From a bacterium (GTDB lineage Bacteria; Hinthialibacterota; Hinthialibacteria; Hinthialibacterales; Hinthialibacteraceae): 64,000 nt of DNA. This document shows, one piece after another, positions 5,546-64,000 of this stretch. The stretch lies in assembly GCA_041946805.1 (NCBI GenBank), contig JBHGBC010000007.1, forward strand, positions 1-64,000. The letters run 5' to 3'. Numbering within the stretch: the stretch's first letter is position 1; each line of letters starts with the position of its first letter. The notes below the pieces were generated by a model. It was not told the DNA's origin, did no database searches, and saw only the letters and a program-made list of their open reading frames with translations. A program made the translations under genes and the position numbers.

Positions 5546-5636
5546 GCGGGCCACTCCGGAACAAGCTTCCGCAACCGGCCCTATTCCTTCCTGACCGCAA
5601 TCCGGGATGGGAGTGGAAGGAAGGCGGCGGAACAGC

Positions 5637-6260
5637 ATGGTTTTTTATTTGTTCCAAGGAATAGGACTCGGCTTGGCGGCGGCCGCTCAGCCCGGCCCCT
5701 TTCAGGCCTATGTCATTTCGCAAACCCTGGATATAGGCTGGCGGCGCGCCCTCCCGGTTTCCCTGGCCCCCTTGATCACCGACGGACCGATCATCCTGAT
5801 GACGGTTTTTTTCCTCAGCCGGATCCCGGATTGGTTCGAGCCGGTACTCTACACGGCCAGCGGCTTCTTTATTCTCTACCTGGCTTACCACGCGTTCCGG
5901 CGGTGGCGGGAATTCACGGACGGCGGAACCGCATCGGGTTCCAGCGTCCGGGGTTTGTGGAGAGCGGCCGGGATGAATGCCATCAGCCCGGGGCCCTATG
6001 TGTATTGGAGCCTGGTCACGGGGCCCATACTCCTGAGGGCCTGGCGGGAAGCACCGATTCAGGGAGTGGCTTTTCTCGTTGGCTTCTATGGCGCGATGAT
6101 CTTCGTGCTGGTCACCATCATAGTGCTTTTCGGTATGGCCCGCCAATGGGAGACGCGCCTGCGGAAGGTTTTGCTGGCGGGGTCCGCGGCGGCATTGGCG
6201 GGTTTTGGGGCCTATCAGTTGGGGCTTGGTCTGGCCGGGATCCGTACGGCTTGGAGATGA
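5637..6260 (+). CDS. LysE-family translocator
   Basis: G.GLGLAAAAQPGP N-terminal motif, NAISPGPY.YW second motif, ~6 TM. Confidence 0.8.
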   Translation: MVFYLFQGIGLGLAAAAQPGPFQAYVISQTLDIGWRRALPVSLAPLITDGPIILMTVFFLSRIPDWFEPVLYTASGFFILYLAYHAFRRWREFTDGGTASGSSVRGLWRAAGMNAISPGPYVYWSLVTGPILLRAWREAPIQGVAFLVGFYGAMIFVLVTIIVLFGMARQWETRLRKVLLAGSAAALAGFGAYQLGLGLAGIRTAWR

Positions 6261-34250: not shown

Positions 34251-36596
34251 TCATTGGAAATAATCCATCGCGGTAAACCGGTCTTTCCAATACGAATTGT
34301 TCCGGCGGGAATGGCGCTCCCCGGACGAGCGGCGGCCGGACCGGTCATCCTCTCCGGCGGGATCGTGCCGGCTGGACCGGTTGGATTGGGAATCGTTCTT
34401 GGCGGAATCCTGTTGTTTGGCGTCCAGCGTCTCCTTGGAGATGGTCAACCGTTCCACGCGAATGCCTTGATCGTCGAACGCGGAACGCAGGGCGGTGATA
34501 TTCTGTTCCAGCAAGGCGCGGGTGGCGTGTTTTTCGGCGCTGATCTGGGCGGACAACAGGTTGTTTTCCAAGGTCATGCGCACGACGATATGGCCGAGCG
34601 ATTCGGGAACCAGGCGCAAGCTGACCTGGCTGCGCTGCGAGCCGAGTGATCCTTGCACGGCGCGCACGATCTGGCGGGAAGCGGTTTCCTGCAATTGGGC
34701 GATTTTTTCGGTATAGGCCTGGGCCATGCCGGACGCGGAGGGAGTCTGGGCTGCGTGGGTTTCATTCATCACCGGCGGCGCGGCGTCTGGATGCATGGGC
34801 TGGTGGCATTGCGCCTGAACGATTTCCGGATGGACCGGGGTTGCCGGGGTGGTGGCCGGACGGGAAGCCGGCGGCAAGGTTTCCACTACCGTGTCCAGGG
34901 TGGCGCCAGAAGACGGTGGCGCAGATTCGGTTTGGGATTCCGGAATCCGCTGGAGCTGGGTGTCCGGTTCGCGGTTGGCGGCTTCACGGTGAAGAGAAGC
35001 AGATGCGGTTGTCTTTTTCACAACCGGTATGGCTATCTTTTCCATGGATTCGTTCGAGCATTGGTCCGATGGGCCGTCCTCGGCCATGACATCGATCCCA
35101 GGGATGAAATTCTTCCGTTTGTCATCCAGTTTCACCGAGCCGGGATCATGGGATGGGATTGTCTTACGGGCTTGCGGATTCGCGGCGGACAGGAAAACTG
35201 TCTGATCATCTTTCATTCCCCACTTGGAAGGGATTTCACTGGAGTCCGAAGTGAACAAGAGAGGGGAACGGTCCGGGTACTCCGGGGCTGTGCCCGGGGC
35301 GCCGGTTGATGGGAATCCGTTCTGAAATCCGGAGGGCATTCCCTGAAACGGAGGAAGAGAATTGGCTGATTGGATGGTCTCCCTTGTTGTGGAAGTGTTG
35401 ATTTCATCCGTACATTCAATGGGCTCTTCCAAGGTTATTTGAGTGAAAACAGATTCCGCCGGGAGAGACGGTTTCTCAGTTTTCCGCTGCATGTTCATAT
35501 CTATTGGGGAGGAATGAACCTTGCCGGCGGCATGCGGCATGGAACCATGGTGGTCCGCGGATATTCTAGAATGCTCCGTCAGAAACGTGGTTTCAGCGGA
35601 TAGTTGTGCGCCGGACTGGAAGTGTGTGACTTTCCTGACCGTCTTCTCTGAACTTATCCCTACGGGAATTGCGGTGTTGTCATTATTGGCGCTTTTGATG
35701 CCAACCGACTCCTCTTTGATACTCCGCTTTGGGGAGTGCTTTGATTCCTGTATTTTATATTTCCCGGTGGGTGCCGGCTGATCAGGGCTGGACTGGATAT
35801 TCAATGCCATCGGCCTGTCGGGAGTGGCTAAAAAATGCCGAGAATCGGCAATATTTTCCCACGTTGGGATATCATTTGGGGGGATGGATGGCCCGGATGG
35901 AGAAGGGATGGGAATGTCCGTTCCCTGAGGGTATCCTTGCACGGCAGGTTGGGACGGAAAATCGAAAGAAACACGTGTAGTTTGGCACTCATGCGATGCA
36001 TTCGAGTCGAGGATGGTTTTTGACACATCGATGGAGTTGTATCCGTTTGACTTGGCATCCCCTCGTTTATCCCGGACCAGGCTGCCAGCGTGAATAATCC
36101 GGGGGGAGAGAGCCGGGAGTTCGCCTGTTTCTTGCGGCGCCGATGCGAAGTCCAGCAGCCGTTCCGTCAAAGGGGAATCCGGTTTCGAGGAAATGCGGTT
36201 GCCTTCCAGATTTCCGCCCGCCGGGAGGGCCAGCGGATCCTGAGTGGAATCCGGCGGGGAAAGTATATTTAAGTGAATCGTGGGATTTTTGTCTTGGCCC
36301 TCGGTCCGCGTGGATTCGTGGGACAAGAAAAGCGCACGGGCAGAGCTTTCCTTTAAGTTCTCTGCCGATATTGCTTTTCGAGACTGGCCAGGCCGGGCCG
36401 GGGAGGTTATGGTCACTTCCTGGCGGGAAGAATGATTGGTTGAAGGACGATGCAGCGCTTCCTGAAACAGGGGGAAGAAGGGGGAAGTGGAGGTTGAGTT
36501 CAAAACCGTGGGAGCCTTGGCTCGAAGCCCGGCCGCCGTATTGGAACGGGAGCGGTCCAAAAAGAAAACAGCGGCGTTTTGTCCCATGTTTACCAT
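34251..36596 (-). CDS. fliK: Flagellar hook-length control protein (~780 aa)
   Basis: Long S/T/P-rich low-complexity N-term; C-term LRLVPESLGHI.V......L.A.I......TR.LLE.....LR..F..QGI; upstream of flgD; start uncertain (36629/36596/36587). Confidence 0.85.
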   Translation of the reverse strand: MVNMGQNAAVFFLDRSRSNTAAGLRAKAPTVLNSTSTSPFFPLFQEALHRPSTNHSSRQEVTITSPARPGQSRKAISAENLKESSARALFLSHESTRTEGQDKNPTIHLNILSPPDSTQDPLALPAGGNLEGNRISSKPDSPLTERLLDFASAPQETGELPALSPRIIHAGSLVRDKRGDAKSNGYNSIDVSKTILDSNASHECQTTRVSFDFPSQPAVQGYPQGTDIPIPSPSGPSIPPNDIPTWENIADSRHFLATPDRPMALNIQSSPDQPAPTGKYKIQESKHSPKRSIKEESVGIKSANNDNTAIPVGISSEKTVRKVTHFQSGAQLSAETTFLTEHSRISADHHGSMPHAAGKVHSSPIDMNMQRKTEKPSLPAESVFTQITLEEPIECTDEINTSTTRETIQSANSLPPFQGMPSGFQNGFPSTGAPGTAPEYPDRSPLLFTSDSSEIPSKWGMKDDQTVFLSAANPQARKTIPSHDPGSVKLDDKRKNFIPGIDVMAEDGPSDQCSNESMEKIAIPVVKKTTASASLHREAANREPDTQLQRIPESQTESAPPSSGATLDTVVETLPPASRPATTPATPVHPEIVQAQCHQPMHPDAAPPVMNETHAAQTPSASGMAQAYTEKIAQLQETASRQIVRAVQGSLGSQRSQVSLRLVPESLGHIVVRMTLENNLLSAQISAEKHATRALLEQNITALRSAFDDQGIRVERLTISKETLDAKQQDSAKNDSQSNRSSRHDPAGEDDRSGRRSSGERHSRRNNSYWKDRFTAMDYFQ

Positions 36597-36656
36597 CCGT
36601 GGCGACTTTCGCGGCGGCTCCGGCCGCAATGTGGGAACAGATAATGATCAAGGAAA

Positions 36657-36672
36657 AGCAAAGTCGATGCCA
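36657..36672 (-). promoter_or_regulatory. sigma54 (-24/-12) promoter upstream of fliK
   Basis: Minus strand TGGCATCGACTTTGCT = GG-N10-GC with TTGC box. Confidence 0.75.
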
Positions 36673-43619: not shown

Positions 43620-44813
43620 ATGAAACCGGAACGCAAACGAATCGAGGAATGGCGCGCGGCGCTTTCCCCGGAATGCCGCGGCCGGATCGATCAGGCCTGT
43701 GACATAATCTGCCGGACGAAGGAACGGGGCGGCAAAATCGCCGTGGTGACCGGTAGCGGGCCGAACGTGCATGAAGGCGTCACGACGCAGATCGCCGAAC
43801 TGATGCGGGCGGGAATCGTCGATGGGGTCACCACCAGCGCCGCGGTGGTGGCGCACGAAATGGGGGGCGTGCTGGACCGGGTGAAACGGGTGGACGGCCG
43901 CGCCTTGGGCATCGCGCCTGACCTGCTGCCCCGGGGCGGATTGTTTGAGTTTTCGTTGATCGATAAGACACGGCTGGAAGTGGTCGCCGGCGATCTCCCC
44001 ATCGATTGGGAACTGTGGAACCAAGGGGAGAAAGCCAGCGGCGCGGTGATCATCAAGGCCGCGGGCAACATGGGCTATCCCATGGGATTGTGGATCGAGC
44101 AGGCGGCGGAGCGCATTCTCCATCTGGCCCGGGACCAGAATCAGCCATTCGAAAAAATCGCGGGAGACTATGCCGATGAACGCACCATGACCGGCCAGGG
44201 CGCGCGCCGCGGAGTGCCAATGTTGGTCACGATTCCCCAGTTGGTTGGCGGGGGGATGGTGGGATTGGCCATCGGCGACAGCATCCCCATTTCCCAGCGC
44301 GCCCGCCGGATCGCGGAACTGCTCGAATCGGCCGAGGTCATCATCGAATCCGCCGTGGTTTTGACCCAGGAGATCCACGACGGCCCCTATGAAACCTTTA
44401 CCGGACACGGCATCTGGGCGGGCTGGCAAGGCCAATCCACCTACCGGCTGGAAAACAAGCAGCTGATCCGCATCGATCTGGATTCCGCCCTCGACCGCGC
44501 CTGGCGGTTCGAACGCGAATCGCGGACCGTACAGGAGGCGATCGACAAGGGACTTCCAAAAACCAAACTCATGGATATTCCGTTTCGCATGGAAATGTCG
44601 GGATTCGCCCGGCTGGAAGGCAGTTTGCCCATCATCGCCGACATCGGTGTGGTGTGGCCCATTCTCGCGGCGGGCCTGGAGGAACGGCTGGGGATCGAGT
44701 TGGACTTTATTTCCGCCCCGCAACAGACGCCGGAAGGCCAGCGCATGCGCGCATGGATCGCGGACGAAATCCAGCCGATCCAGCCGGTGCGGGAGAGAAC
44801 GCTTACCGGATGA
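43620..44813 (+). CDS. Hypothetical protein with deoxyhypusine-synthase-like (NAD-binding) N-terminal pattern
   Basis: KIAVVTGSGPNVHEG...IAELMRAGIVDGVTTSAAVVAHE pattern; normal coding style; divergent from kdsB. Confidence 0.5.
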   Translation: MKPERKRIEEWRAALSPECRGRIDQACDIICRTKERGGKIAVVTGSGPNVHEGVTTQIAELMRAGIVDGVTTSAAVVAHEMGGVLDRVKRVDGRALGIAPDLLPRGGLFEFSLIDKTRLEVVAGDLPIDWELWNQGEKASGAVIIKAAGNMGYPMGLWIEQAAERILHLARDQNQPFEKIAGDYADERTMTGQGARRGVPMLVTIPQLVGGGMVGLAIGDSIPISQRARRIAELLESAEVIIESAVVLTQEIHDGPYETFTGHGIWAGWQGQSTYRLENKQLIRIDLDSALDRAWRFERESRTVQEAIDKGLPKTKLMDIPFRMEMSGFARLEGSLPIIADIGVVWPILAAGLEERLGIELDFISAPQQTPEGQRMRAWIADEIQPIQPVRERTLTG

Positions 44814-44879: not shown

Positions 44880-44964
44880 TCCCCTGTCCTCCGGGAGAGG
44901 GTTCGGGTGAGGGAGGTCCTTGCTTGGGCGTCCCTCACCCGGCTGCTCCCTGATGGGGGGGAGA
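44880..44964. repeat. Inverted pair of degenerate REP cores between convergent genes
   Basis: cccctgtcctccgggagagggttcgggtgaggga ... tccctcacccggctgctccctgatgggggggaga. Confidence 0.7.
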
Positions 44965-45029: not shown

Positions 45030-45377
45030 TTAGCTGGATGACTGGGCTTCGGGCGGCTCGTGTTTCGGCTTCTGAAGTTCCATCATGCGCGACCACACCC
45101 AGGTACAGGCTTGGTGATATTCCTCCTTGCCGGGTGGAATCGAATTCTTGAAGTTCGTGTAATCCATGGTTTGGACATAATCCGCGAGCCATTTTTCCAC
45201 TTCCGCCACTGGAAGGAACGCGCGGAAGCGGTAATCGGCTTCAGGGTCCTGAAAAACCTCCGCGTCCGGAAAAGCGGATTCGATATCCCCTTGGCAACGG
45301 GCGCGGACCAAGCGGCGCTCCGGATGGTTCCGGTCTTTCACGATCGAGAGAAAAGCCTGGCTGGTGAAGATCCACAT
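45030..45377 (-). CDS. Small conserved hypothetical protein (115 aa)
   Basis: MWIFT..AFLSIV...LVRAR..GDI....P.......ADY.FRA......DY.NFK pattern; RBS GAGGA; 24 bp after the upstream stop. Confidence 0.75.
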   Translation of the reverse strand: MWIFTSQAFLSIVKDRNHPERRLVRARCQGDIESAFPDAEVFQDPEADYRFRAFLPVAEVEKWLADYVQTMDYTNFKNSIPPGKEEYHQACTWVWSRMMELQKPKHEPPEAQSSS

Positions 45378-45401
45378 GTATCTCTTCCTCCGCGCGATGA
45401 T

Positions 45402-46892
45402 TTACGATTCCACCGGGAACGCCGCGAGATGGCAGAGGGAATCCTCGAACCACACGCCGGTCCCGTAGAGGGAGGATTCCCGCACCATCAGTTCGTTGCC
45501 CAATCCGATGGACGGATCGCACAGATTGACCGATAGGCTGAGCCGGACGAGGAAATCGCGGGCTGCCTGGGGATCGGTTTTCGGCAGGCGGCGGGGATCG
45601 AAAGCCGCCTGGGTGAAGTACGATCCGGCCAGCTGGTCCCAGCAATCCTTGAAAACGCCGGGATCATGGAAGAAATCCAGGCCGATGATGGCATCCCCGC
45701 TGCCCACGAGGACCCCCGCCGCGTTGTCCGGCAGTACCAATTTTTCCCGGAAGGATTGTGTCTTTTCCTCCGATTGCTGGTAGCCGTCGGTGACCGAGGA
45801 GGTGGGGGAGCAGGCGTGCAACTCATGCAGGTGCAGATCCACCTCTTCCCAGACCTCGCCCTGATCGCTCATGGCCATCCCGGTGGAGGCCCGGCATTCC
45901 TGGACACTGCGCATTTTCTTGCCGCGCAGCCGGGGGTGGGCGTAATACGCGGATTGGAAGCGGCGGGACGAATACCGCCAGCGCCCCCGCTCCACGCAAC
46001 TGACGGGGATGCGCAGCGACTGCTTCGCGGCGACCAGGATCGACACGTTGACCACCCGGTTCTGCTTGGCCCCCACCAGAATTTCCCCCTCGGGGACCAG
46101 GAGGGGTTTGGAACCGAGGTTGTGGACCGTCAGTTCCTGCACCCGGCCTTCTTCGGACACTTCCTCGATCTGCGCCTCGCCGGTTTCCAGGGCCTTGCGC
46201 AGCAGGACGAAGGGGGCCTGCGAGCCGTTGAGCGGATACAGCGGGAACAGGGTGAGGTTTTGGTGATGGATGGCATCGCCCATTTTCAAGCCGCCGATTT
46301 TTTCGCGGATCGTGTCCAGCAGCGAGTAGGTCCGCGAGTGTTTCAGGGCTTCCGCCTTGGCGGGAAAGAGGGCGAGAAGCAGGTGCGTTTCGGGAGCCAC
46401 GCCGCGCGCCGCGGTTTTCTCCAGCCGTTTGGACAGACCCCAGATCACGTCCGGATTTTTGTAGGTGTCCAGTTTGACGAACACCTCGCGGATGGTCTCA
46501 TGCAGCGCCTCGACGTCGGTGGCGGGATTTTCGATGGGCGCCAGGATCGAAAAACCGTGCCGCGTCAGGAACACCTTGAGTTCCGCGGGAAAGCCCTCGT
46601 GCCGGCGGAAGGGATTCGGATTCCACGAGGCGGGAACCCGGGCCTCGAGCCAGACCGCTCCCCGGTCGATCAAGGGCGCAAGCCACCGCGTCATCTCGCG
46701 GGAAAGATAACCGACCCGCGCGAAATCCGGATTCTTCACCAGAATCGCGTTGGAGTCGTGCGGATTGTAGATGTCCCGCTCCAGATGCAATTCGTCCCCG
46801 GGACGGACTTCGCCCGCCACGTATTGGCACCCGGTCAGCCTTGTCTGAATCTCACCCAGATACTTTTCTTGTACATCGCCGATGGGGGTCAT
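45402..46892 (-). CDS. HIRAN domain + ARPP-1/DUF6569-like domain fusion
   Basis: N-term G.QY.....PGD.L.L.RD..NPHDSNAI.V......VGYL.R.....LAP.ID (HIRAN); C-term L.V.N....PLL..EGE.LVGAKQNRV.N.S.L.......IPVSCVE.GRW...Q.EVW; RBS GGGAGA before ATG 46892. Confidence 0.8.
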   Translation of the reverse strand: MTPIGDVQEKYLGEIQTRLTGCQYVAGEVRPGDELHLERDIYNPHDSNAILVKNPDFARVGYLSREMTRWLAPLIDRGAVWLEARVPASWNPNPFRRHEGFPAELKVFLTRHGFSILAPIENPATDVEALHETIREVFVKLDTYKNPDVIWGLSKRLEKTAARGVAPETHLLLALFPAKAEALKHSRTYSLLDTIREKIGGLKMGDAIHHQNLTLFPLYPLNGSQAPFVLLRKALETGEAQIEEVSEEGRVQELTVHNLGSKPLLVPEGEILVGAKQNRVVNVSILVAAKQSLRIPVSCVERGRWRYSSRRFQSAYYAHPRLRGKKMRSVQECRASTGMAMSDQGEVWEEVDLHLHELHACSPTSSVTDGYQQSEEKTQSFREKLVLPDNAAGVLVGSGDAIIGLDFFHDPGVFKDCWDQLAGSYFTQAAFDPRRLPKTDPQAARDFLVRLSLSVNLCDPSIGLGNELMVRESSLYGTGVWFEDSLCHLAAFPVES

Positions 46893-47001
46893 GATCGTTC
46901 TCCCTGTCTGGACAGTATGGACCAGCCTCAATTCCAAGCCTGCCATGCCCGGTTCCTTGGAAATCCCATGAAGAGGATGTCTTCTTGGGATTCCCCTTGA
47001 A

Positions 47002-47017
47002 TACAAGAACGATGCCA
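47002..47017 (-). promoter_or_regulatory. Candidate sigma54 promoter for the HIRAN-ARPP-1 operon
   Basis: Minus strand TGGCATCGTTCTTGTA (GG-N10-GT, one mismatch in the -12 box); shares AACCTGGCATCG with the fliK promoter. Confidence 0.55.
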
Positions 47018-47082
47018 GGTTGCGATGGCGCGGGACTCCCGGGGCGTAATTGTCTGAATCCAGTGATCCTGATGAAGATAAA

Positions 47083-47162
47083 ATTACCAATAGGGTAATA
47101 TTTCGGCGGGGTTGGGGCCAGGATTTGAGTTCAATTATTGCGTGGGAGATTCAATATTTGAG
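47083..47162. promoter_or_regulatory. Candidate enhancer (UAS) sites
   Basis: Inverted repeat ATTACC-N5-GGTAAT (47083-47099); tandem ttcaattattgcg / ttcaatatttgag 20 bp apart (47130-47142, 47150-47162) in an AT-rich patch. Confidence 0.4.
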
Positions 47163-47180
47163 CACGGGGCGGCGGCGGGA

Positions 47181-48755
47181 TCATTCGTCCTGCACCCATT
47201 TGCGGACGGTGTTGGGGGAGATCCCCAACGCCTCGGCCGCCTGAGAGATGTTGCCGCCGAAAAGCCGGTGGACGTGCCGGATGTAGGTTTTGCGGATTTC
47301 CGCCTCGGTCACGACCTCGGCGGGATGGGATGGACAGAACATACGCCGGCCGGAGGCGTTGTCCTCATCCGCGCGGGCGGTGCCGGCGTGGAACAGGGCG
47401 ATTTCCTCGGCCAGAATATCCCGCACCGGCTGTTTCATGTAAGCCGCCCGCCGGAGGATGTTGATGAATTGGCGGATGTTGCCCGGCCAATCGTATTTGT
47501 AAATGGCCTCCCAGTCGGCCTTGGTGATTTCCAGGGCATACCCTTTGTGCTTGAGTTCATAGATCTCGCTGCGGGCGATGGAGGGGAGATCCTCCAGCCG
47601 TTCCTTGAGCGGGGGAACGTGCAAAAACAGGACATTGAGGCGGTGGAACAGGTCCCGGCGGAACGTGCCCGCGCGGACCATGGCCGGCAGGTCCTGATTG
47701 GTGGCGGCGATCACGCGCACATCCACGTCATGGGATTTCATGGTGCCCAGGGGCGTGACCCGGCGTTCCTCGAGCACGCGCAGCAGCTGGGTTTGCACGG
47801 GCAGCGGAAGCTCGCCGGCTTCGTCAAGGAACAGGGTACCATCGTCAGCCGCGGCGAACGCCCCGGGCTGGGCGTCCTTCGCTCCCGTGTAAGCCCCCGC
47901 GGCATGGCCGAACAGCCGGTCGTGGGCCAGATCGGTGTTGAGGCTGAGGATGGCGCAATTGACCGGAATGAAGGGACCTGGGCGGCCGCTGGCCTCGTGC
48001 AGCAGCCGGGCGGCGATTTCCTTGCCGGATCCCGTGGGACCGATCACCAGCACGGGCTCGGGGACCGGTCCCAGGCGGGCGATCTGAGTGCGCATGCGCT
48101 GCATGGCCTTGCTGTTGCCCAAGGGAATGGCGTAGCGCCCCTCTTTCCGGTAGGATACGGCTACGCGGCGGTCGGCTTCGGTGAAGGGAACCAGCCCCGC
48201 GAGTTTTTGGATGACATGGATGTAACTGGACTTGTCCTCGTATTTGAAATACCGGCTGGCGCCGGCCGCGATCAAATCGTGCCAAAGGGCATCGGTTTCC
48301 GACCGCTTCAGGTCGCGGTTCACAAATTGCCGGGCCAGGGTCAACAAAGTTCCCGTGATCTCGGTGTCCCGGATTTTGAGATGCTGATACACCGCCTCGG
48401 TGTTGCTCGAACAGGGTATAAACACCGGCACGCACACTGGGATCAACAAGGTCCGGTATTCATCCAGGTATCCCCGCCCGCAGTACCACAAGACCTTGAT
48501 CCGCTTTTTTACAAACGCTCCGAGGACGGTGGTCACCCCCGCGATGTTATCATACACACCCACGCCGCAGATATGGATGATGCCCGGCGGGGGATCCAGT
48601 CCGGCGATTTCCTCCAGGGTCAGGGCGATCCGTTGCGCGCTGGTGGTGACGATCTGGGCCTTGGGGAAGCGCTGCAACACCATGGCGGCGGCGCATGCCC
48701 CATCCGTGCCGTTGGTGGTGAGAATCAAATGCGGCTGATTTTGGGAATACGGCAT
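47181..48755 (-). CDS. sigma54-dependent enhancer-binding protein with degenerate DHH-like N-terminal domain
   Basis: Walker A GPTGSGKE, VNCA, LFGHAAGAYTGA, Walker B LFLDE, FRRDLFHRL, YDWPGNIRQ, Fis HTH GNISQAAEALGIS; no REC domain. Confidence 0.88.
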   Translation of the reverse strand: MPYSQNQPHLILTTNGTDGACAAAMVLQRFPKAQIVTTSAQRIALTLEEIAGLDPPPGIIHICGVGVYDNIAGVTTVLGAFVKKRIKVLWYCGRGYLDEYRTLLIPVCVPVFIPCSSNTEAVYQHLKIRDTEITGTLLTLARQFVNRDLKRSETDALWHDLIAAGASRYFKYEDKSSYIHVIQKLAGLVPFTEADRRVAVSYRKEGRYAIPLGNSKAMQRMRTQIARLGPVPEPVLVIGPTGSGKEIAARLLHEASGRPGPFIPVNCAILSLNTDLAHDRLFGHAAGAYTGAKDAQPGAFAAADDGTLFLDEAGELPLPVQTQLLRVLEERRVTPLGTMKSHDVDVRVIAATNQDLPAMVRAGTFRRDLFHRLNVLFLHVPPLKERLEDLPSIARSEIYELKHKGYALEITKADWEAIYKYDWPGNIRQFINILRRAAYMKQPVRDILAEEIALFHAGTARADEDNASGRRMFCPSHPAEVVTEAEIRKTYIRHVHRLFGGNISQAAEALGISPNTVRKWVQDE

Positions 48756-49168
48756 GATTTGTAAGAACAAGCATCTCTATTCGGGTGATCAAGCTTCTAT
48801 ACTATATTATTCCAGGACGGGTCATGGTAGATCTCATGGAACACGCATCCGGATTTTCGATGAGTGTTGACGATCCATGGTTATATATTTCTGGGGGAGA
48901 AATAGGGATGTTGTCCGAGAGGTCTCCCCATCGATTGGTTACGCGAAGGGTGTCATCCAGGCGAAACGGGGTTCTGGCGATTGTCCAGGATTGAAACTCC
49001 GGATGCCAGAGGATCCTCCAATATTATGGAAGGGAGGCGCGTTGCCGCGTGCCCCCATTATTTGAATTGGACATCCCTCCCTCCTCTCCCAGAGAAATTG
49101 GTTCCTCGATTTGATTCAGTTGCGGGATGCAACGCATCAAAACCGAACAATTCCCGGATGGCCCATTT

Positions 49169-52100
49169 TTAATGCGTCCCTTTCCACCTATCCGAGAAGA
49201 GCAGCAAGTCTTTCCGGTCGATCCGGCCGTCCTGGTTGAGATCGGCGGCGGATGATCCATGCCAGTTGTGGATGAGGATCAGCAGGTCCACGCGGTTGAC
49301 GAACCCGTCCTGGTTCAGATCACCGAATAGTGAATGAGCCTTCGTCGTAAACCAGGCGAACTCGGACCACTCGCTCCATTGTTCGTTGGCGTCCTGGTAC
49401 CGGACGCGCCATTCGTAGTTTTGGCCGCTTTGGAGTGGACCTAACGGGATCTTGGTTTGGGAGGTGGGAGCGAGGGATCCGCTTTCCCAAACCAATGTGC
49501 CGAAGGTGTACTCGCGGATTTCGAATTGCGCCGCCTTCCGCGGAGTGCCCAGGGGATGCGCGTATTCCGAGGCTTGCAGGACCGGGGTCAAGGCGGGCGA
49601 ATACGCGCCGGCCACGGGAGAAAGAGCCTCGGGCGGGTTGGGCGGCTGCGTGGCGAGAGTATGGATGGTTTCGTTGGTGACGATCGCCGCGTTTGCGTCG
49701 AACACGATGGATGCCTGGTTGCGGATGGCGGTCCCCGGCTGCAATCCGGCCGCGGGATCGATCCGGAACGTGACATGGCCCTCGCCGCGGCCCGTGGCGG
49801 AGTCGTTGGGCGGCAGGAAGCCCGCGGTCCCGTCCAGGGGGATCGCGCCGGTTTCGGGATCGATCAGGGTCAACGTCCACCGCGCCCGGCCGGTGTAGGG
49901 ATTCAGGCGCGCCTCGATGTCCACCGCGTATTCATCCCAGGCCACACGTTGATAGTGATCGGTATGCCCCGCCGGGATGGGAATGATCCGGCCGCCGATG
50001 GCCACCTCGGACAGCTCGAAGGAAGTCCAGTCCAATTGGTTGCTCAGATCGTCGGTGAGGATGACCTGTTGGACCGAGGCCGTGGCTTCCGGGGTGTTTT
50101 CGAAGAAGATGGTGTAGGTCAGGGGATCCTGGCCGGAGATGACCGCCTCCTTGCCGCCGGGACCGGTCTTCTCGTTGGGATCGCGAGTGACGACCACAGG
50201 GGAGTTGGTTTGCTGGACGGGGGTCGTGGGCGGCTGGGGGAAGGGAGATTTTTCGCCCGTGCAATCGAGATACTTTTGAAACGCCTTTTGCGCCCGCGCG
50301 ACGTACAACTGATACGCGTGGTAGCGTCCGGAGGCGGCGTTGGTGTTATCGCGGATGCTGCGGACCGCATCGATGGTGGATTCGACCAGTTTGATCGATT
50401 CGTTGACGATCCCGATCAGGTTGAGGACCGGTTCGAAGGCGCGCTTGAATTCTTCACTCTTAATCATATTCATAAGTGGTTTCAACTTGGCCAGGAGACC
50501 CAGGAAGGTATGAAATTCCTCGGCGATGGAGCGCCAAGTCAGCTCGTTGTTCCGTGCGTCTTTCAAGAAGGTGAGCCGGCCCTTGTATTGTTCGATGTAG
50601 GAAAGCACCTTGAGCAGCCGCTGCCCCCAGACTTTGCCTTCCTTCAGTTTCTGGATGGCGGCGATGATCTTGGGGCCGTTGACCACGGCGGCGGCTCCGG
50701 CTTCGTAAGCGGCCAGTTCGAGCTCGGCGATCTTCCCGGCCAGCACCGCGGCCTGCAGGCCTACTTCGCCACCGCTGGCCAGCCAGGTGAAATTGGCGTT
50801 GCCCTTGGCCTTCCAGGCGTCCATGTAGACATATTCCGATTGCGCGAGCAGTTTGCCCACGTTTTTCGCTTCATTACGGCATTGGGCATCGGGATTTTTG
50901 ACGATGGCGTTCCAGTTTTGCAATCCGCCCGCGTGGTTGATCATCTCCATCACGCGGGGATCGCGGGCCAGGCCGCTGCGTTCGGTCACGAACAGACGGT
51001 AATCCGCGGGAATGTTGGTGTTGGAAAGCCAATCGAGGAATCCATCGAGATATTCTTGAAAGCCCCGGGCATTCATCAACGATGCGCTTGGATCATCGGC
51101 GAGTTTTTTGGTGGTATCGACGAATTGCGGTGTGATGGGCCAGGGATCGAAGCCCGCGCCCGGCGCGAGCGGCAGTGCTATATCCTTGACGAATGAGCCG
51201 GATAGATCGGTGACTTCCACGCTGTCTTTGGCAACCTGGGAACCGAAAATAATATCCAATTGATAACTTCCGACAGCGAGAGGCGTGGACTGATACACCC
51301 CCTCCGCGCTCGCGGTGGAGCGGGCGGCTTCCAGGCCATCCAGTTTGAAGATCACCACCGCGCCCGCCAGTGGCAACAGGGATGCGCTGTCCCGGATCGT
51401 GCCGGTTACGGTTTGGTCTTCACTGGGCAGGGTGATGCTCAATGGCGGTGTCGCGCCACTCTCCAGCACCGCAAATCCGGACTGCTTGTACCGGGGGAAT
51501 CCCGCGGCTTGCACGTGGACCTCATAGGTTCCGGCGGCCATCCCTGCCATGGTGAAAGTTCCATCCCCGGCGCTGAAAGATTTGAGTCCGGGATCCCCGG
51601 CCGCTTCTTTGAATAGGACCACTGCGTCCGAGACGGGATCTCCGGTCCGCGCGGAGACGATTTTGCCCGTGACCAGGCTCTCCGCGGGCAGGGCGAAATC
51701 CAGGGATAATGCGGAATCGCCCAGCGTGACTTGTTGCGTCATCCGGCCCAGGCCGGGTGCGATGACCGCCAGCAGGTAGTTCCCCGGAACCAGGTGGTTC
51801 AACTCATACTGGCCGTCCGCGCCGGATGAGGCCATCGATCCCTGCCGTACCTCCGCGCCGGGATCGAGAGGAACCGCCTCGATGATGGCGTTCTCCACTC
51901 CCAGGGCCGAGGTTCCCGCGGTGATGGTCCCGGCGATCTTTCCCGATGCCGCGATGAGAGTGATTCCATCCATGTTTCCGTTGACCTGGATGGTCTGTCG
52001 CGGGAATGTGTAATCGGCCAGCAAGGCGCTGAGAGTCAGACTGCGTTGGGGCAGGTTATGGAAGGCGAATCCGCCTTGCCCATCACTCATCACCATGCCC

Positions 52101-55100
52101 AGCACGACTCCATCCACGCTGACCGCCGAGACGAGGCTGTCCGCCAGGGGCGTAATGCCGTCCGCGTCCAGCACCCGGCCGGTGAGGGATCCACCGGGCG
52201 GGAGGAGCACGTCGCCCAGCGTGTTGGCCGCGCCGCTCTGGATTTCGATCATCCGGATTTGCAGTTCATATCCGGTGGCGTTGATCCAGACGCTATGGAT
52301 TCCCGGCGTAAGCCGGGACACGGTGAAATTCCCGAGCGCGTTGGTTTGGGCGGTGTCGGACGTTTGCGTGACCAGGTTGGTGAACAGCAGGATGGCATTC
52401 TCCAAGGGTGATCCCGCCGCGGCATCCAAGACCCGGCCTTGGCAGACCGCGCCGCGCTTCATCTGGATCGTCAGGCCGTTGAGTCCCGATTCGGGCACGG
52501 TGACCGCGAGCGGCGCGAGGACCTGGTACCCGTCCGCCTGGCAGCGCAATTCATAATTACCCGGCGCGAGTTCGGCAATGGAATATGTCCCATCCTCGAA
52601 TGACCAGGCAGGCAGAAGGCTTCCCTGGGGAGTTTTGAGATAGATCATCGGGTTGGCGATAGGCTGGCCGGTATCGGCGTCCTGGACCACGCCGTTCAAG
52701 TACACGGAAGGCTCGAGCAGGAAATCCACTTCCTTCAAGGCCCGGCCGTTCCAGACCTGCAGCCCGTCGTAGCGTTTGGCGGCGTACGAGGGATGCAGCG
52801 CTTCGAGGCTGTAAAGGCCCGCGGGCAGGGCGGGGAAGCGGTAGGCCCCTGTTTCATCCGCCACCATGGCGCGGATTCCGCCCAGGCCGTCCTGCAGCGT
52901 GAGCATGACGCCCTCGAAGGGCGTACGGCCGGGCATCTCGAATACGGTTCCCTCGATGATCCCGCCATAGGGAACCCGCCATTCCACGCCGGATACGATT
53001 TGCCCTTCGTTCACGTTGATTTGACCCGGATTGACGCCGGGGTAACCGTTGACCTCGATGGAGTAGATGCCGGAGGGCAGATTGATGAACTCGAATTGCC
53101 CTTCGGCGTTGGTATCGGCGGTGGTGGAGAAGGCGGGAATCCCGGAGCTGGAGATGTTTTGGATCAAGATACTCGCCCCGGTCTGGGGATGGCCGTATTC
53201 CTCATCCACCAGCCGGCCGTGGATTTCCCCGCCCGGTTTTTGTTGGAGGGGGCCGAGGAGGCGGGCCAGCAGTTCATCCGCGCCGGCCAGGATGACGCCC
53301 TGACTCCACAAGCCGGTGGCCATTGTGGCGAGGGCGTCTTGGTAATCACCCCAGGTGGGGCCCACCGCGTCCACGTAGGCGGTCCATTCCGGCGCGTCCC
53401 ACGCCACCAGCGAATTCAAGTCCTGGATGGCCTCCAGGCTGAACGAAATGCGATTCGCGGCGCCTGACTGGAAATAAACGGCGATGGAACCTTCCGCGCC
53501 GGGGGCCAGAATCCCCGCCGGGCCTTCCCGGGGGACCGCGAGGAACCGGACGGGCTTCGTCTCCAGCGGCGCGTCCGGATCGAGGCCGAGGGGGACATCC
53601 GCTTCGGACCGGAGCAGCAACACCGGCGCGGTCATGTCCGCGTCGCCGGTATTTTGATACCGGATCAGCAGCGTATACGTACGTCCCGGGCGGATGGCGT
53701 TGGGGGCCAGCAATTCCGCTTCCAGGCGCGGGCCGATACCGGGAGTCACCTGGAACGCGTTTTCGAAGGTAGATTGAGCGATGCCGCCCGGCCATTTCAC
53801 CTCGAGATTGTACGAACCGATTGGCGCACCGCGCAGATTCATCCGCGCGTGCAGTTTCGTTGAATCGGGAACCAGGATTTCATAGGCGGAAATGGCCGTC
53901 CCGCCCGGTCCCGCCAGGCGTACCTCCACGCCGGATTGGAAGAGGGAGCCTTCGAGGGACAATGTGACATCGCCGAGATTGCCACCCTGCGTGGGCGACA
54001 GCGAAACGACATATTGGTCCACATAGTCGAATTGGATTTGATACGTTTCCTGGCTGTCAGCCAAACCGATGGCGAAGACGAGGAAATAATAATCCCCCTC
54101 CCCGGTTTGGGTCATCAGCAATTCATACGCGGGCCGCAGTTGAGGTGTAATAGACCGGCGGTCATACCGCGCGGGAGAAGGTTCGTACCCCAGGGCGGCA
54201 AAGATGTGGTACCGGCTGGAAGCGTTGGCGTGGATCAGACGGCACAACAAGTTGCGCCCGGCTTGCGCGTGGAATTTGTACAATTTCAGGCCATATTTCT
54301 CGACGGTTTCGGAATAGGGCGTATGGAGCTCCACCTCGCGCGCCACGAGGACCTGATCCGGGACCTGCTCTTCGCTGGTGAACCACGGCTCGAACAGGAC
54401 TCCCTGCGAGACGGAGTCCCCGTTCCCCGGGCCGCTTCCCGAGGGGCCGTTCGCGCTGCCCCACCAGTTGAAGGTGGCGTTCACGTTGATCGAGGGCGAG
54501 AGGTTGTTCACTCCCGCCTGGTTGCCCACGATGTGGGAAAACTGCACGGCCGCGTCCATGCCCGATTGCCCGTTGGTTTCCAGCGCCGTCCCGTTGTTCA
54601 GAAAGCGGCTGTAGGCGGTGGTCATGCGGGCGGATTGCAGCACACGCAAGGCAAATTGATTGTATTCGAAACGGCAGCTCTCCAGGCTCACATCCGCCAG
54701 GCCCCGCGCTTCCACACCCGCCCGGCCGATGCCCGCGTTGCGGATCACCGCATGGCGGATCGATCCCTTGCCTTCATCCTGGAGGAGAATGCCGGCATAG
54801 ACCGACCAGCGCGTCGCGTCGGGAACCGTGGGTGGAGCGGCCAGCTGGACAGGCTGATTTATCTGGCCGTTGATGCCCAGGAATCCCGAGACCACGAATC
54901 CCGCATCCCCTCCTTCGAGGGCGATGAAAGTCCCCGGCCGGATTTGCAAGGAACCGGTGGGCGCGATGGTCCGCGAACGGTGAATTTCGTAATATCCGCC
55001 CAGGAGCGCGTGGAGCGCGCCGCTTTCTTTCAACTCCCCGCTGCCGATCTCCAATCCGGCCTGGTCTCCGGAGACGATGTTGCCCGGCTCGGATGACGCG

Positions 55101-58100
55101 GCGGTGAGGAAATTCACCGAACCCGTCCGGTTGTTGCCCAGAAATTGATTGTTGCCGAAGCGGATACGCGATTCATCGCCGTAGGTGAACAACGCGTCCG
55201 TGTTTTCCTGGAACACGTTGCCCCGCAGCGTGAGTTGGGCCTGGTCCCGCACAGCCACGCCCTGCCCGTTTTTTGTGAACCGGCTGGCGGTGATTTCCAC
55301 CGCGGCCTTCTGATCGCCCCGGAGGCCGCCCCGGGTGTTATCCTCGAACGACAGGTTGGTGAGCGTGGCGGCGGTGGCTTCGGCGATCATCCCGTAGTTC
55401 AGGCTCTCGCGCAGCGTCAGGTTTTCCAACGTCACATCGGCGCCTGCCATGAGGCGGAACTGAGATTCCAATCCCTCGGACGCGAAATTGGAGCCGCCGT
55501 ATTCCACCTCCGCCTGGCTGAGGCGCCCGGACGATCCGGCCGTGAACACCAGCGCGCCCCAATGACCCCGGGCGGGAACTGTCTGGGCCGATGTGAAAAG
55601 AATGGGGAGCGTATCGGAACCGGCCGCATCCAATCTCCCTTTTATGAGAAGATCCGATGAGATTTGCAGAAACTGAATCGTGTTGCCCTTGGCAATGGTA
55701 ATCCGGGCTTCCGGGGCGATTTCGACGTCCTCGGAGATCAGGTAGGGAATGCCCGGTTCGATCCACTCGCCGCTGCCGGTCCAGCTGCCGCCCGCGATCT
55801 TGATGGCGTTGAAGCGGTTGGCCACGGCGGCGGCATCCTGAATGACGGGAAACGCGTTGGGGAAAATCTGCGCCGCGAGGCCCTTGTTATTTTGGATGAC
55901 CGGTTCGATGAACACGGGGGAGCCGTTCTTGATCCAAATGCCGTCGCTGTTGCTGTATTGAAACACGCAATTTTCCAAGGCGGGCGAGGCTCCGTCACAA
56001 AATACCATGGAAGCCTGCGTAAGGCTGGCGAAGTTGGAACCGCCGTATTCCATCACGCAATGCTGGAGCCGGGTGATGGCGTTGTTGGTGGTGGAGCTGA
56101 AATAGATCCCGCCCCAGGATCCCGGCGCGGGCGTCCGATGGAGCGAAGTGAAACGGATGGGATTGGACACGGTCCCCACGGCCCACAGCGCGCCGTCCAC
56201 CCGGAGATCGGCCGCGATGTCCGTGAACTGGAGTTCCGTTCCCGGATCGATGGTCAGCATGGCTTCCGGGGCGATCACCACATCGTTGCGGATCAGGTAG
56301 GGGATTTCGGCATAATCCCACCGCCCGCTGCTATTCATGGTTCCGTTCAGGATCAGGATGCCGTCGAACTGGTTACTCTCCGCCGAGACCGCAGTGAATT
56401 GCGGGAAAGATTGGAGGTCCATGAAAGCGGCGTAATTGGCGTTGGCTGCGAAACGCACGGATGCCACGTTCGCGCGGGAAGTGATCAGGCTCAATCCGTT
56501 GGTATGGGAGTTGGCGATCCAGCAATCGCTCAGCGTGGGGGATGATGCTTCGCAGCGGATCATGGAATCCACCGTGGCGGAGGCGAAATTGGTTCCACCG
56601 TAGCGGATCTGGCAATGTTTCAAGATCGAGCCATCCGATCCCGAGTTGCTGAAGAGGATTCCTCCCCACGCGTTATCGGGGATGTCTTTCAGGGAGGTGA
56701 ACACGATGGGCCGGCCGGTTTCCCCCGCCGCGTACAAGGTTCCCTGGATGATGAAATCCGTGGCGATGTCTCGGGATTGCACCACCGTCCCCGGATCGAT
56801 GGTCAACGTGGCGCCGGAGGCGAGGGTGATGTCCGAATCGAGAAGATAGGGGATTTCCGCGTAGTCCCAGCGGCCGCCGGCCAGGATGGTCCCTCCCCGG
56901 ATCAGGAGCGCGTCGTATCCGTTGCCCTCGGCCGTGATGCCGGTGAACACGGGGAAACACCGCGCGTCCATGTAGAGGGCGGCCGCCCGGTTGTTCACGA
57001 AGTGAATGGAGGTCAATTGGGCCTGGGAATCGATCAGGCTGATCCCGGCGTTGGCGGAATCCTCAACCCGGCACGCGTTGAACGTGGGCGAGCTGCTTTC
57101 GCACCGGATCATGGAATCAATCGCCGCGGACGCGAAATTGCTTCCCCCGTGGCGGACCGCGCAATGTTCCAAAACCGAGGCGTTGGCCGTGGAACCCGTG
57201 AAGAGGATGCCTCCCCAGCGGTTTTCCGGTTTGTCTCCCATCGATGTAAACAATATAGGTTGGTCCGCGCCGCCCACGGCATGCAAGGTTCCCTTGACCA
57301 GCAGGTCGACGGCCAGGTCTCCCGTTTGGATGACCGTGGCGGGATCGATGGTCAACGTCACGCCGGATTCGAGGGTCACATCGCCCGCGAGGAGGTAGGG
57401 GAGTTCGGCATAGTCCCAACGCCCACTGGCAGTCAATGATCCGCTCCGGACCTGGATGGCGTCGAAACCGTTGCCCTCGGCGGTGACGGACGTGAACACG
57501 GGAAACGAGGCGGTGTCCATGGTGACCGCCGCGCGGGGATTCCCCTTGAACAGGACCGATGAGATCACGGCGGCTGAATTCACCAGGCACATCCCGTGAT
57601 TCTTTGAAGCCTCCATCCGGCAATTGCGGAACAGGGGGGAGGCGTTTTCGCAGCGGATCATGGCGTCCTGGGTGGCCGAGGCGAAATTGCTGCCCCCGTG
57701 GCGGAGCTCGCAATATTCCAGCAGGGACGCGTTGGTTTCATTGCCTGAAAATAGAATACCGCCCCAACTGTTCGCGGCCTCGTCGTTCAGGGAGGTGAAA
57801 ACAATCGGATTGCCGCTGGCGCCCACCGCCGTCAGTTTGCCGGCCGCGATCAGGTCGTCTTCGATTCCGGCAAACTGGATGACGGCGCCCGCCTCGATGG
57901 TCAACGCCGCGCCGCTGTCGATCTGGATATCATGGTCAACCAGGTACGGCAGGTTCGAAAACCGCCAGACATTCGTTTCCAGGATATGGCCCCCATCGAT
58001 ACGGAGGCCATCGAAGCGGTTGCCCGTGGCGCTGTTGTTGGACAAGGCGGGGGAGCAGGAGGGAGTCATCTGGACCGCGTCTTGCGCGTTGGCGGTAAAG

Positions 58101-58627: not shown

Positions 58628-58749
58628 GGCTTCCCACCTTTTCCCGCCTGGAACCGGGAGCCCGATTGGTAAGGATATGGAGGAGCTATAAAGGATGTGT
58701 AATTTTAGCCAAATTCTGGTTAATTTTCTATCTATTTTTTAAAAAAAGG

Positions 58750-58959
58750 GGTTCATCCGGCAAGTGCGTACTTTTCATCAAATGGCCAACCCGCGACTCG
58801 TTGAAGGGACCCATGAAAACCACCCCCAAAATCCCCTCTCCCTCTGGGAGAGGGCCAGGGTGAGGGAATTCAGGTCGGTGCGGACCTGGAAGTCCGCCCT
58901 CATCCCGGGGTGAATGAAATCAATTTTACAACATCCGGTACGCACTTATCGGATGAACC
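58750..58959 (+). mobile_element. 210-bp MITE family A with 8-bp target-site duplication
   Basis: TIRs ggttcatccggcaagtgcgtac / gtacgcacttatcggatgaacc (2 mismatches); AAAAAAGG at 58742-58749 and 58960-58967; REP core 58832-58867. Confidence 0.9.
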
Positions 58960-59157
58960 AAAAAAGGGATATAACAAGCGCTTGCTGTGCTTTGAAAAAG
59001 GAGCGGTGCACAGTTTTTGAATCCTTGACAACTCGGGAAGATCATGTCCGTTCCGGCCCGGGATACTCATTATTTCAATTGTTCACAATCACTTCACACC
59101 GCGGACCGGTTCCAGCACAATGATGTTCATAACAAAATAGCAAAGGCTGAATTAGCC

Positions 59158-61665: not shown

Positions 61666-61856
61666 ATCCGTGTCCATTCGATAAAACGGACTTTCCTCGA
61701 TGGCCGGGATCTCTGCTCGTATTTCATTGTCATCCTTCCCGCCTGAAAATGGGAATTCACTTGGCATGATTCCATGTTCGCCGATATGGTATAGAGGGCA
61801 AGAGGATTTTCCTCCAGGAATTTCTGATAATAAGCGTACAGGCGAGAGAAAATCAC

Positions 61857-62210
61857 ATGTCTATTCAAATCAAACGCGCGTATGATCCGCCGGATCCCGG
61901 CGATGGATTCCGGATTCTGGTGGACCGGATCTGGCCCCGGGGACTGAAAAAGGAAGAGGCGAAAATTGACCTGTGGCTTAAGGACGCCGCTCCCAGCACG
62001 GAACTGCGCAGGTGGTTCGATCATCAATCCGAACGCTGGGAGGGATTTCAAGAAAAATACCTCGCCGAGTTGAAAGCGCGCCCCGCGGTTCTCGAACCGT
62101 TACGGGAAACGTTGCGAAGGGAAAAAAACGTCACGTTGGTTTTTGCCGCCAAGGATGCCGAACATAACAACGCCGTGGTGCTGCGGGATTATCTGGCGCG
62201 TGGACACTAA
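61857..62210 (+). CDS. DUF488/YeaO-like protein
   Basis: IKRAYDP....DG.RILVDR.WPRG.KKE......WLKD.APSTELR.WF.H; TLVFAAKD.EHNNA.VL. Confidence 0.85.
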   Translation: MSIQIKRAYDPPDPGDGFRILVDRIWPRGLKKEEAKIDLWLKDAAPSTELRRWFDHQSERWEGFQEKYLAELKARPAVLEPLRETLRREKNVTLVFAAKDAEHNNAVVLRDYLARGH

Positions 62211-62231
62211 CCGTGGCTCCTCGTAAAATTA

Positions 62232-62268
62232 TTCCCACTCCCTCTGGGAGAGGGCCAAGGTGAGGGAA
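62232..62268 (-). repeat. REP-like palindrome
   Basis: ttcccactccctctgggagagggccaaggtgagggaa just after stop at 62210. Confidence 0.8.
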
Positions 62269-62535
62269 TACCTTTTCAAAGTGTTTTTACTTCCCAAATC
62301 ACGCAAATGCCCCTGGTGATCAATCATGGATGTTTCCTTTCGGGAAAGGCTCTTCCGTTGCCCGGGTTTTCAACCCCAAATTCCCGGCTCACCTGCTCAA
62401 AAGCCGGGGAACATGATATGATTTCTGGATTCGGCCGCGCGCGGGGGCGAGAAGATATTTCGTACATTTCCCAGGCCCCGGCGGGCGGACACAATCCGCA
62501 ACGAGAAACGCAGTTGGTCAGGGGAATACCGAATA

Positions 62536-63915: not shown

Positions 63916-64000
63916 AGCTGCGGGGTTGCTCTCCAGATTCCTAAGCGGAAGCAGGTTGAGACACTAACGGTTTTTTCTCCTTCCGCCGGCGGCGGAGTGG

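Follow-up and report, generated by a model that had tools for sequence, protein, structure and literature searches.

RtcR is a one-component bacterial enhancer-binding protein (bEBP) in which an N-terminal ligand-sensing domain of the CARF type replaces the usual receiver domain and restrains the AAA+ module until ligand binds. Its gene lies beside a sigma-54 promoter that serves an operon of nucleic-acid-directed effectors, rtcB and rtcA. In a 64-kb stretch of a bacterial genome (contig JBHGBC010000007.1, positions 1 to 64,000; hereafter the window, meaning the full stretch), three co-oriented open reading frames (ORFs) fill positions 45030–48770 of the minus strand and are organized alike: a bEBP adjoins a predicted sigma-54 promoter followed by a fusion of HIRAN and ARPP-1 domains and a protein of 115 aa. 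The differences from RtcR-rtcBA lie in the N-terminal domain of the regulator, which falls outside the RtcR models and is DHH-like by fold, and in the genes downstream. From sequence and comparison, we read the unit as a real and conserved module, an RtcR-like sigma-54 circuit with a new type of sensor that drives a published but uncharacterized HIRAN-ARPP effector.

The effector domain was described by Iyer et al. 2022 (PMC9503650, section 3.8), who named ARPP, noted its conserved Cys and Gln, reported it in conserved two-gene neighborhoods whose other member is a HIRAN domain, a WYL regulator, or a deacetylase, and predicted that it acts on sugar moieties in virus–host conflict, perhaps through a SRAP-like covalent link. 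The module shares with those systems the ARPP domain, its Cys and Gln, and the linkage to HIRAN, and the HIRAN-ARPP pairing is therefore not new. Relative to the systems in the consulted passages of that paper, a sigma-54 activator with a DHH-like sensor takes the place of a WYL or Nudix repressor, and HIRAN is fused to ARPP. The ARG-centric ADP-ribose-countering systems described there combine ARG with a phosphatase and with Nudix or WYL, whereas a Pfam scan of the three module genes and the two genes downstream found no ARG, coupled phosphatase, Nudix, or WYL domain. The original prediction for this locus had called the combination undescribed. This stands for the sigma-54/DHH-like regulator and the small partner, neither of which was found in print in a literature search and in the consulted passages of PMC9503650, but not for the linkage of ARPP to HIRAN and WYL.

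Comparison with PADLOC, a check proposed with that prediction, likewise identified no catalogued system: in PADLOC-DB v2, no system matched as a whole, the small protein was without a match, and the partial matches were an RtcR-type model on the AAA+/helix-turn-helix (HTH) part of the bEBP and a weak PDC-M03B match (E 1e-6) over ~50 HIRAN residues. WYL-regulated defense operons of the BrxR/CapW type also place a nucleic-acid- or nucleotide-sensing regulator beside a conflict effector. WYL regulators repress sigma-70 promoters, whereas the regulator of the module is predicted to be an ATP-dependent activator of sigma-54.

Predicted sigma-54 regulatory unit

By sequence and comparison, the regulator of the three-gene unit is a complete bEBP, the predicted sigma-54 promoter is conserved and has palindromes paired upstream of it, and the operon downstream is conserved as well (table 1). 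ORFs and coordinates agree with the earlier description of three co-oriented genes, the downstream two being 24 nt apart. The bEBP ORF spans 47181–48770 (529 aa), and we favor the shorter product listed in table 1 because Met6 is the sole invariant column among 53 aligned relatives. Besides Sigma54_activat (PF00158, E 7e-56), Pfam identifies an AAA lid and an HTH of the Fis type (HTH_8), and the translation shows a Walker A motif (GPTGSGKE), an LFLDE motif, and a GAYTGA loop. RtcR-type models match only this AAA+/HTH part, from residue ~210 (NCBIfam RtcR, E 4e-74; PADLOC RtcR_PspF2, E 1.4e-90), and the NCBIfam score of 250 bits is far under the cut-off of 650 bits. The features of a sigma-54 activator are present together, namely an AAA+ domain with a GAFTGA-type loop, a C-terminal HTH, rpoN in the genome (at G000:C1; G- and L-numbers denote genomes compared and extracted loci, respectively), and a nearby −24/−12 box with upstream sites.

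The predicted box, TGGCATCGTTCTTGT, lies past the bEBP stop (47181) and ahead of the HIRAN start, where the original prediction had placed a −24/−12-type element. The AT-rich repeats noted there resolve into two 11-bp palindromes, 20 bp apart and about 125–145 bp upstream of the −24 element; both the box and the palindromes are conserved in relatives. The sequence TCAAWWWTTGA has one occurrence in the window versus 0.07 expected. A search for TGGCA[CT]N5TT[GA][CTA] on both strands of the window and 25 related loci, 613,792 nt altogether, yielded 18 matches. Eleven of these are directly upstream of HIRAN-ARPP-1, or of a gene that precedes it (p126, see below), and correspond to 11 of the 13 HIRAN-ARPP-1 loci analyzed from the phylum. 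Loci L183 and L189 keep the box despite having no adjacent bEBP. Five other matches represent three boxes in a region of genome G001 with a Nudix-ARPP-1 fusion, two of them counted twice in overlapping loci (L194 and L197). Of the remaining two, one precedes a FliK-like flagellar gene of the window (36672, see below) and one is inside an unrelated gene of L187. By eye, metagenome loci L079 and L083 carry boxes spelled slightly differently. In the 260 nt preceding the box, a loosely defined palindrome, scored without a shuffle control, recurs in 7 of 12 related loci at −144 to −147 and in 5 of the 12 at −125 to −127; L186 and L192 have only near-matches, judged by eye.

Table 1. Features of the module and its downstream boundary in the window
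Feature	Position	Strand	Description	Evidence
Sigma-54 activator (bEBP)	47181..48755	-	524 aa from ATG 48755	Pfam PF00158 and HTH_8; N-domain model; Foldseek
Putative upstream activator sequence	47131..47161	-	two 11-bp palindromes, TCAAATATTGA (47161-47151) and GCAATAATTGA (47141-47131)	sequence; conservation in related loci
Predicted sigma-54 (-24/-12) promoter	47003..47017	-	TGGCATCGTTCTTGT	pattern search; conserved in 11/13 loci
HIRAN-ARPP-1 fusion protein	45402..46892	-	496 aa, favored start ATG 46892	Pfam; HLTF alignment; invariant Cys/Gln
Small conserved protein	45030..45377	-	115 aa, unnamed family	17 relatives aligned; 75 genomic loci
REP-like hairpin	44904..44941	.	CGGGTGAGGGAGGTCC / GGGCGTCCCTCACCCG, inverted pair 44904-44919 / 44926-44941	directly past last gene; dispersed genomic repeat

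Linkage across related genomes

Linkage was counted across 35 genomes of the phylum and 13 HIRAN-ARPP-1 loci from it. An ARPP-1 relative is present in 17 of the 35 genomes and the DHH-like N-domain of the bEBP in 12, all 12 of which also carry ARPP-1; there is one such bEBP per genome, except for two in G010. In 8 of the 13 loci (the window, L181, L185, L186, L188, L190, L191, and L192), a co-oriented bEBP is located no more than 2.5 kb upstream of HIRAN-ARPP-1, and G009 is a ninth bEBP-adjacent case by coordinates. The small gene is found in five of the 13 (the window, L181, L186, L188, and L190), all with a bEBP. Co-occurrence of the three families, which the original prediction had proposed to check, is borne out: the full trio is seen in four other genomes, and the pair of bEBP and HIRAN-ARPP-1 in more.

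Rearrangements and substitutions are found at several loci. An IS3-type insertion sequence (IS) element is located between the bEBP and the operon in G010, at a contig end, and in L187 a transposase intervenes and the bEBP is a fragment at the contig end. In genome G001, of another family of the phylum, a Nudix-ARPP-1 fusion carries its own sigma-54 box, and a 32%-identical bEBP is located 5.6 kb upstream of the fusion. Among three metagenome HIRAN-ARPP-1 loci with enough flank, a bEBP is present in L079 (divergent) and L083 (co-oriented); in metagenome locus L077, a WYL-WCX regulator is located just downstream of HIRAN-ARPP-1, where other loci have the bEBP. Occurrence is patchy, in 11 of the 19 genomes from the family and in duplicate in some of them, and neighbors in related loci include BrxA/BrxB, a NERD-kinase, DUF559, and transposases or IS elements.

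Two further arrangements were observed among the relatives. Many have an extra gene of ~126 aa (p126; MAINGxRFLK start, no Pfam family) inserted after the sigma-54 box and ahead of HIRAN-ARPP-1, with examples at L182 7592–7972 (−), L185 7599–8009 (−), L188 7602–8009 (−), L190 7612–8037 (−), and L079 from ~5138 onward (+). Eight of the 35 genomes have p126, which is absent from that of the window and its same-genus relative. It is also present in L183, and L186 retains only a six-codon remnant. In L079, where the bEBP is divergent, a gene with a GGACT (gamma-glutamyl cyclotransferase-like) domain at 5358–5990 (+) is located between p126 and HIRAN-ARPP-1. Neither p126 nor the small protein was found in the consulted passages of PMC9503650. 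The second arrangement is in G001, where two identical boxes, TGGCACGCCGATTGC, are 2.4 kb apart (L197 8902 and 11261 (+); L194 12801). The second of these precedes a 160-aa ORF of no family, and the Nudix-ARPP-1 fusion there is a 604-aa ORF; the paired boxes suggest a small regulon.

N-terminal domain of the regulator

No Pfam family, including DHH and DHHA1, matched the first ~215 residues of the bEBP. The structure of residues 1–215 of the 529-aa ORF, predicted with 53 relatives (predicted local distance difference test, pLDDT, 95.6; predicted template modeling score, pTM, 0.91), comprises a five-stranded alpha/beta domain and, after it, a helical bundle. The best Foldseek matches in the PDB are DHH-family proteins, with a Helicobacter pylori DHH protein (6mtz) at E 4e-5 and a template modeling (TM) score of 0.60. 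Further matches are RecJ (5f55, E 8e-5, and 1ir6), RecJ-Cdc45, a pAp phosphatase (8a8k, TM 0.52), NrnA, and PggH, and the list also holds 8iu7 and 7d62. The DHH-like sensor of the original prediction is thus supported at the level of the predicted fold. A receiver-domain reading was rejected, as receiver structures rank under the DHH proteins (E ~5e-3, TM ~0.3).

DHH phosphoesterases have catalytic motifs and a DHHA1 domain, whereas the N-domain is without both and is fused to a transcription activator. With catalytic positions judged by eye, the Asp/His motifs of DHH enzymes (DXD, D, DHH, D) were not found in the alignment of the N-domain. Its conserved stretches across the 53 relatives are TxxGxDGACAAA, HICGVG, and WYCGRxYLD, and near-invariant residues are A28, A29, S44, G69, and W95. 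Because the catalytic motifs are missing, we read the modeled domain as probably a non-catalytic, ligand-binding sensor. Cdc45 is a precedent for a DHH fold retained without catalysis. The family is small: at 50% identity, it forms 89 clusters in a set of 1.84 billion representatives. In 56 of the 89, the proteins are 476–571 aa in length, and the match begins within the first 25 residues in 52 of these 56. Named members belong to Myxococcota, Planctomycetota, and Brocadiia metagenome-assembled genomes (MAGs) and are annotated just as generic sigma-54 regulators.

HIRAN-ARPP-1 protein

The ORF extends from 45402 to 47090, and the start in table 1 is likely the correct one because the resulting length fits that of relatives (486–529 aa) and GGGAGA is located seven bases upstream. 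The protein consists of an N-terminal HIRAN domain (PF08797, E 2.5e-17, 62.9 bits versus a cut-off of 24.7 bits), a helical linker, and a C-terminal ARPP-1 domain (PF20208, E 1e-77, 262 bits versus a cut-off of 27 bits). The HIRAN part matches the human HLTF HIRAN structures with E 1.3e-9, or E 2.7e-15 as a profile, and the core R-D-x-x-N-P-x-D-x-N-A-I is preserved in the alignment. By this homology, the domain is of the type predicted to bind DNA 3′ ends. In the ARPP-1 domain, C299, Q277, and Q344 are invariant in 27 relatives.

The full protein has 660 relatives, and 110 of the 120 listed have both Pfam domains and a length of ~495 aa; an Atlas cluster of 228 members is mostly from Planctomycetota. 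A sequence search of solved structures found no relative of ARPP-1, with only the HIRAN part matched, and an Atlas search excluding PF20208 gave no usable match. In G011, HIRAN and ARPP-1 are in two ORFs that overlap by 4 nt (L192 6017–7036 and 7033–7560 (−)); the split may be natural or may stem from a frameshift.

Small protein family

Searches of Pfam, NCBIfam, PADLOC, and PHROGs yielded no match for the small protein. Seventeen aligned relatives share the motifs MWIFT..FLSIV..LVRAR..DYRYR..DYxNFKNSI and the invariant residues W2, I3, S11, V13, R25, R27, D48, Y49, R52, Y73, N75, F76, K77, and W95. A scan of species-representative genomes found 75 loci, in Omnitrophota-labelled MAGs, SAR116-type Alphaproteobacteria, Endozoicomonas, Verrucomicrobiota, cyanobacteria, Fimbriimonadaceae, Actinomycetota, and Poseidoniales archaea. 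The predicted model (pLDDT 83) has no clear match to a solved fold, and an Atlas cluster of 279-aa proteins, all Nudix, aligns to it with a TM of 0.84. A complex prediction for the ARPP-1 domain and the small protein, run without controls, scored 0.00, which counts neither for nor against pairing.

Neighbors were taken from a crude ORF call that considers only the nearest ORF on each side. ARPP-1 is directly upstream of the small gene in 4 of 73 cases, two with HIRAN, and in one case it is 2 kb away, beside a DSP phosphatase. A DSP-type phosphatase is directly downstream in 15 of 73, all Poseidoniales-type and hence kin; a Nudix gene is upstream in two and an HNH/DUF3427 nuclease gene in four, and integrases or tail, polymerase, or terminase-linked genes are beside several. 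Of 80 ARPP-1 loci from metagenomes, a single one (L137) is followed by the small gene. The candidate role of an ARPP-specific partner was dropped, a tblastn screen having found ARPP-1 nearby in 5 of 75 loci. In the Poseidoniales-type MAGs, the phosphatase (PTP-SAK, Tc-R-P, or DSPc) begins ~30–45 bp after the small gene (L030, L032, L034, L035, L037, L038, L042–L044, L049, L051, L056–L058, and L070), and a ~150-aa ORF of no family is often located before the small gene.

Phages also carry members of the family. At least nine cultured phages of 86–129 kb encode relatives, one phage relative in BFVD matches with E 9e-10 and 36% identity, and the Atlas clusters of relatives (53–788 members) are mostly Uroviricota. 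In four of five phage records (L201, L202, L203, and L204; ~90 kb), among them Aeromonas phage ST4 (L202) and Yersinia phage fHe-Yen8-01 (L204), genes for a giant protein, a ~160-aa protein, and a 250–290-aa protein precede the relative. The 250–290-aa protein is a Nudix protein by Pfam in both records examined. In two records, depositors have labeled the giant protein a virion ADP-ribosyltransferase; Pfam identifies no family in the ST4 copy. Several proteins of the cluster in fHe-Yen8-01 are annotated as particle-associated. The fifth record, DSL-LC01, has no such giant/Nudix cluster around the relative. The small conserved protein of the original prediction does belong to a real family, but it is not particular to this module: most relatives are elsewhere, with DSP-phosphatases, with Nudix proteins, or in phages. 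We read it as a probable accessory of a gene pool for NAD/ADP-ribose conflict.

Boundaries and flanking features

In tblastx comparisons with four relatives, one of the same genus and one from each of three other genera, homology starts at the small gene and stops at the bEBP; only the same-genus genome has a flank in common with the window. The block at 61830–63919 directly adjoins the module in that genome (L181) and is ~13 kb away from it in the window. The intervening ~13 kb (48770–61830) includes a 3152-aa repeat-rich ORF at 49169–58627.

The other end of the module is at an inverted pair of repetitive extragenic palindromic (REP)-like sequences, as originally described. Their core, GGGTGAGGGA, has 24 matches in the window versus 6.9 expected, a number reached in 0 of 100 shuffles, and inverted pairs built on it are scattered intergenically (e.g., 18112/18137, 20996/21021, 40686/40711, 43465/43490, and 44905/44931). 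The hairpin is a possible end of the module transcript. Just past it is a 397-aa ORF at 43620–44813 (+) with weak N-terminal matches to deoxyhypusine synthase and ArgZ-like Rossmann models (E 0.003–0.01). A second sigma-54-type box in the window, TGGCATCGACTTTGC at 36657–36672 (−), precedes a 792-aa ORF (34251–36629) with a FliK hook-length domain. There is no TCAAWWWTTGA near this box, and a different activator is therefore likely to act there.

Proposed mechanism and alternative explanations

We propose a mechanism in which the bEBP would bind the two palindromes upstream of the −24/−12 promoter, as their conservation suggests, and, by analogy with RtcR, its catalytically dead DHH-like domain would keep the AAA+ ring inactive. 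A nucleotide-type ligand, which could be a short oligonucleotide, a single-stranded DNA end, or a pAp-like or ADP-ribose-derived molecule, would free the ring, and the freed bEBP would switch on the genes for HIRAN-ARPP-1 and the small protein. The HIRAN domain, from its homology, may bring the enzyme to DNA 3′ ends. There, the Cys and Gln of ARPP-1 may act on a sugar, either ribose/ADP-ribose or a damaged terminal sugar, in line with the prediction for ARPP in section 3.8 of PMC9503650, possibly via a covalent Cys–sugar adduct. The small protein would be an optional accessory from the NAD/ADP-ribose conflict gene pool. We consider it moderately probable that the unit is such an inducible, sigma-54-dependent module, in which a bEBP with a DHH-like sensor activates HIRAN-ARPP-1 and the small gene in response to phage or DNA damage. 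Its role is most likely a response to phage attack or DNA damage and not core metabolism. This is favored because a WYL regulator replaces the bEBP in L077, because of the neighbors of related loci (BrxA/BrxB, NERD-kinase, DUF559, and IS elements), and because of the patchy and duplicated occurrence.

Several observations weigh against this proposal. At the promoter, TGGCATCGTTCTTGT has GG at −24, but its −12 element reads GT, not GC, and the pattern search of the 13 loci found no box upstream of HIRAN-ARPP-1 in L184 and L187. No bEBP is present in the flanks at hand of L183, L184, and L189, and the module can do without the small gene, which is found in just 5 of the 13 loci. Because the compared genomes are related, the linkage counts are not independent events. 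The match of the N-domain to the DHH fold is moderate (TM 0.4–0.6), receiver domains also appear in the Foldseek list, albeit lower, and a helical bundle is in the place of DHHA1, the domain that supplies substrate contacts in DHH enzymes. The flanks in the window are ordinary genes (kdsB-like, a transporter, and a giant surface protein), with no defense island. A search of sequencing runs found no RNA run containing the stretch of the module.

The same ordinary flanks are expected of a housekeeping operon for tolerance or repair of DNA damage, in which 3′ ends left blocked or abasic at stalled forks would be processed by HIRAN-ARPP-1, much as abasic sites are shielded by SRAP/HMCES-type proteins, the bEBP would sense repair intermediates, and phages would have no part. 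The homology of HIRAN to the fork-remodeling domain of HLTF also fits, as does the likening of the ARPP Cys to SRAP in the consulted part of PMC9503650. A patchy distribution with duplicated copies within one family is not in keeping with housekeeping, and neither are the IS elements, BREX genes, NERD-kinase, and WYL regulator beside relatives nor the sharing of the accessory small protein with phages and with Nudix and phosphatase contexts. We regard this explanation as unlikely.

A more elaborate form of the phage-response proposal joins a dead DHH receptor, sigma-54 firing, capping of DNA 3′ ends by HIRAN-ARPP-1, and an arms race with phages. The DHH domain would receive an oligonucleotide or ADP-ribose-type signal derived from infection or damage, and a covalent cysteine–sugar link at DNA 3′ ends would stop the replication of phages or of damaged DNA. 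Phages that carry relatives of the small protein in cassettes of injected ADP-ribosyltransferase and Nudix proteins would be taking part in the same arms race. The conjunction of all these elements appears unlikely.

The tight spacing of the two downstream genes (24 bp in the window; 19–24 bp in L181, L186, and L190) raises the possibility of a toxin and its antidote, with HIRAN-ARPP-1 as an abortive-infection toxin that cross-links or blocks DNA ends, the small protein as its neutralizer, and the phage copies, in at least nine cultured phages and in phage-dominated Atlas clusters, as counter-defense. The small gene is missing from 8 of the 13 HIRAN-ARPP-1 loci, which disfavors an obligate antidote, and its product pairs with unrelated enzymes (DSP-phosphatase in 15 of 73 downstream ORFs, and Nudix); we find this explanation improbable. 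It is very improbable that the genes are mere neighbors, with the bEBP controlling another target and HIRAN-ARPP-1 read from another promoter. In G017 and one G010 copy, the bEBP does adjoin glycoside-hydrolase-like or peptidase genes away from HIRAN-ARPP-1, but even these genomes keep the sigma-54 box and palindromes ahead of HIRAN-ARPP-1 (L183 and L189), and the DHH-like bEBP, one per genome (two in G010), occurs with ARPP-1 in 12 of 12 genomes.

Significance

If the proposed sigma-54 module is correct, its regulator would be a second sigma-54 activator, beside RtcR, that senses a nucleic-acid-type signal via a domain other than a receiver, and it would give the DHH fold a purely regulatory role. 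An unnamed family of small proteins, present in phages, bacteria, and marine archaea, would be tied to the NAD/ADP-ribose conflict gene pool. The module may also offer a handle on ARPP, a widespread domain, in that the promoter and activator would tell when the gene is on and the HIRAN fusion would tell where the enzyme acts.

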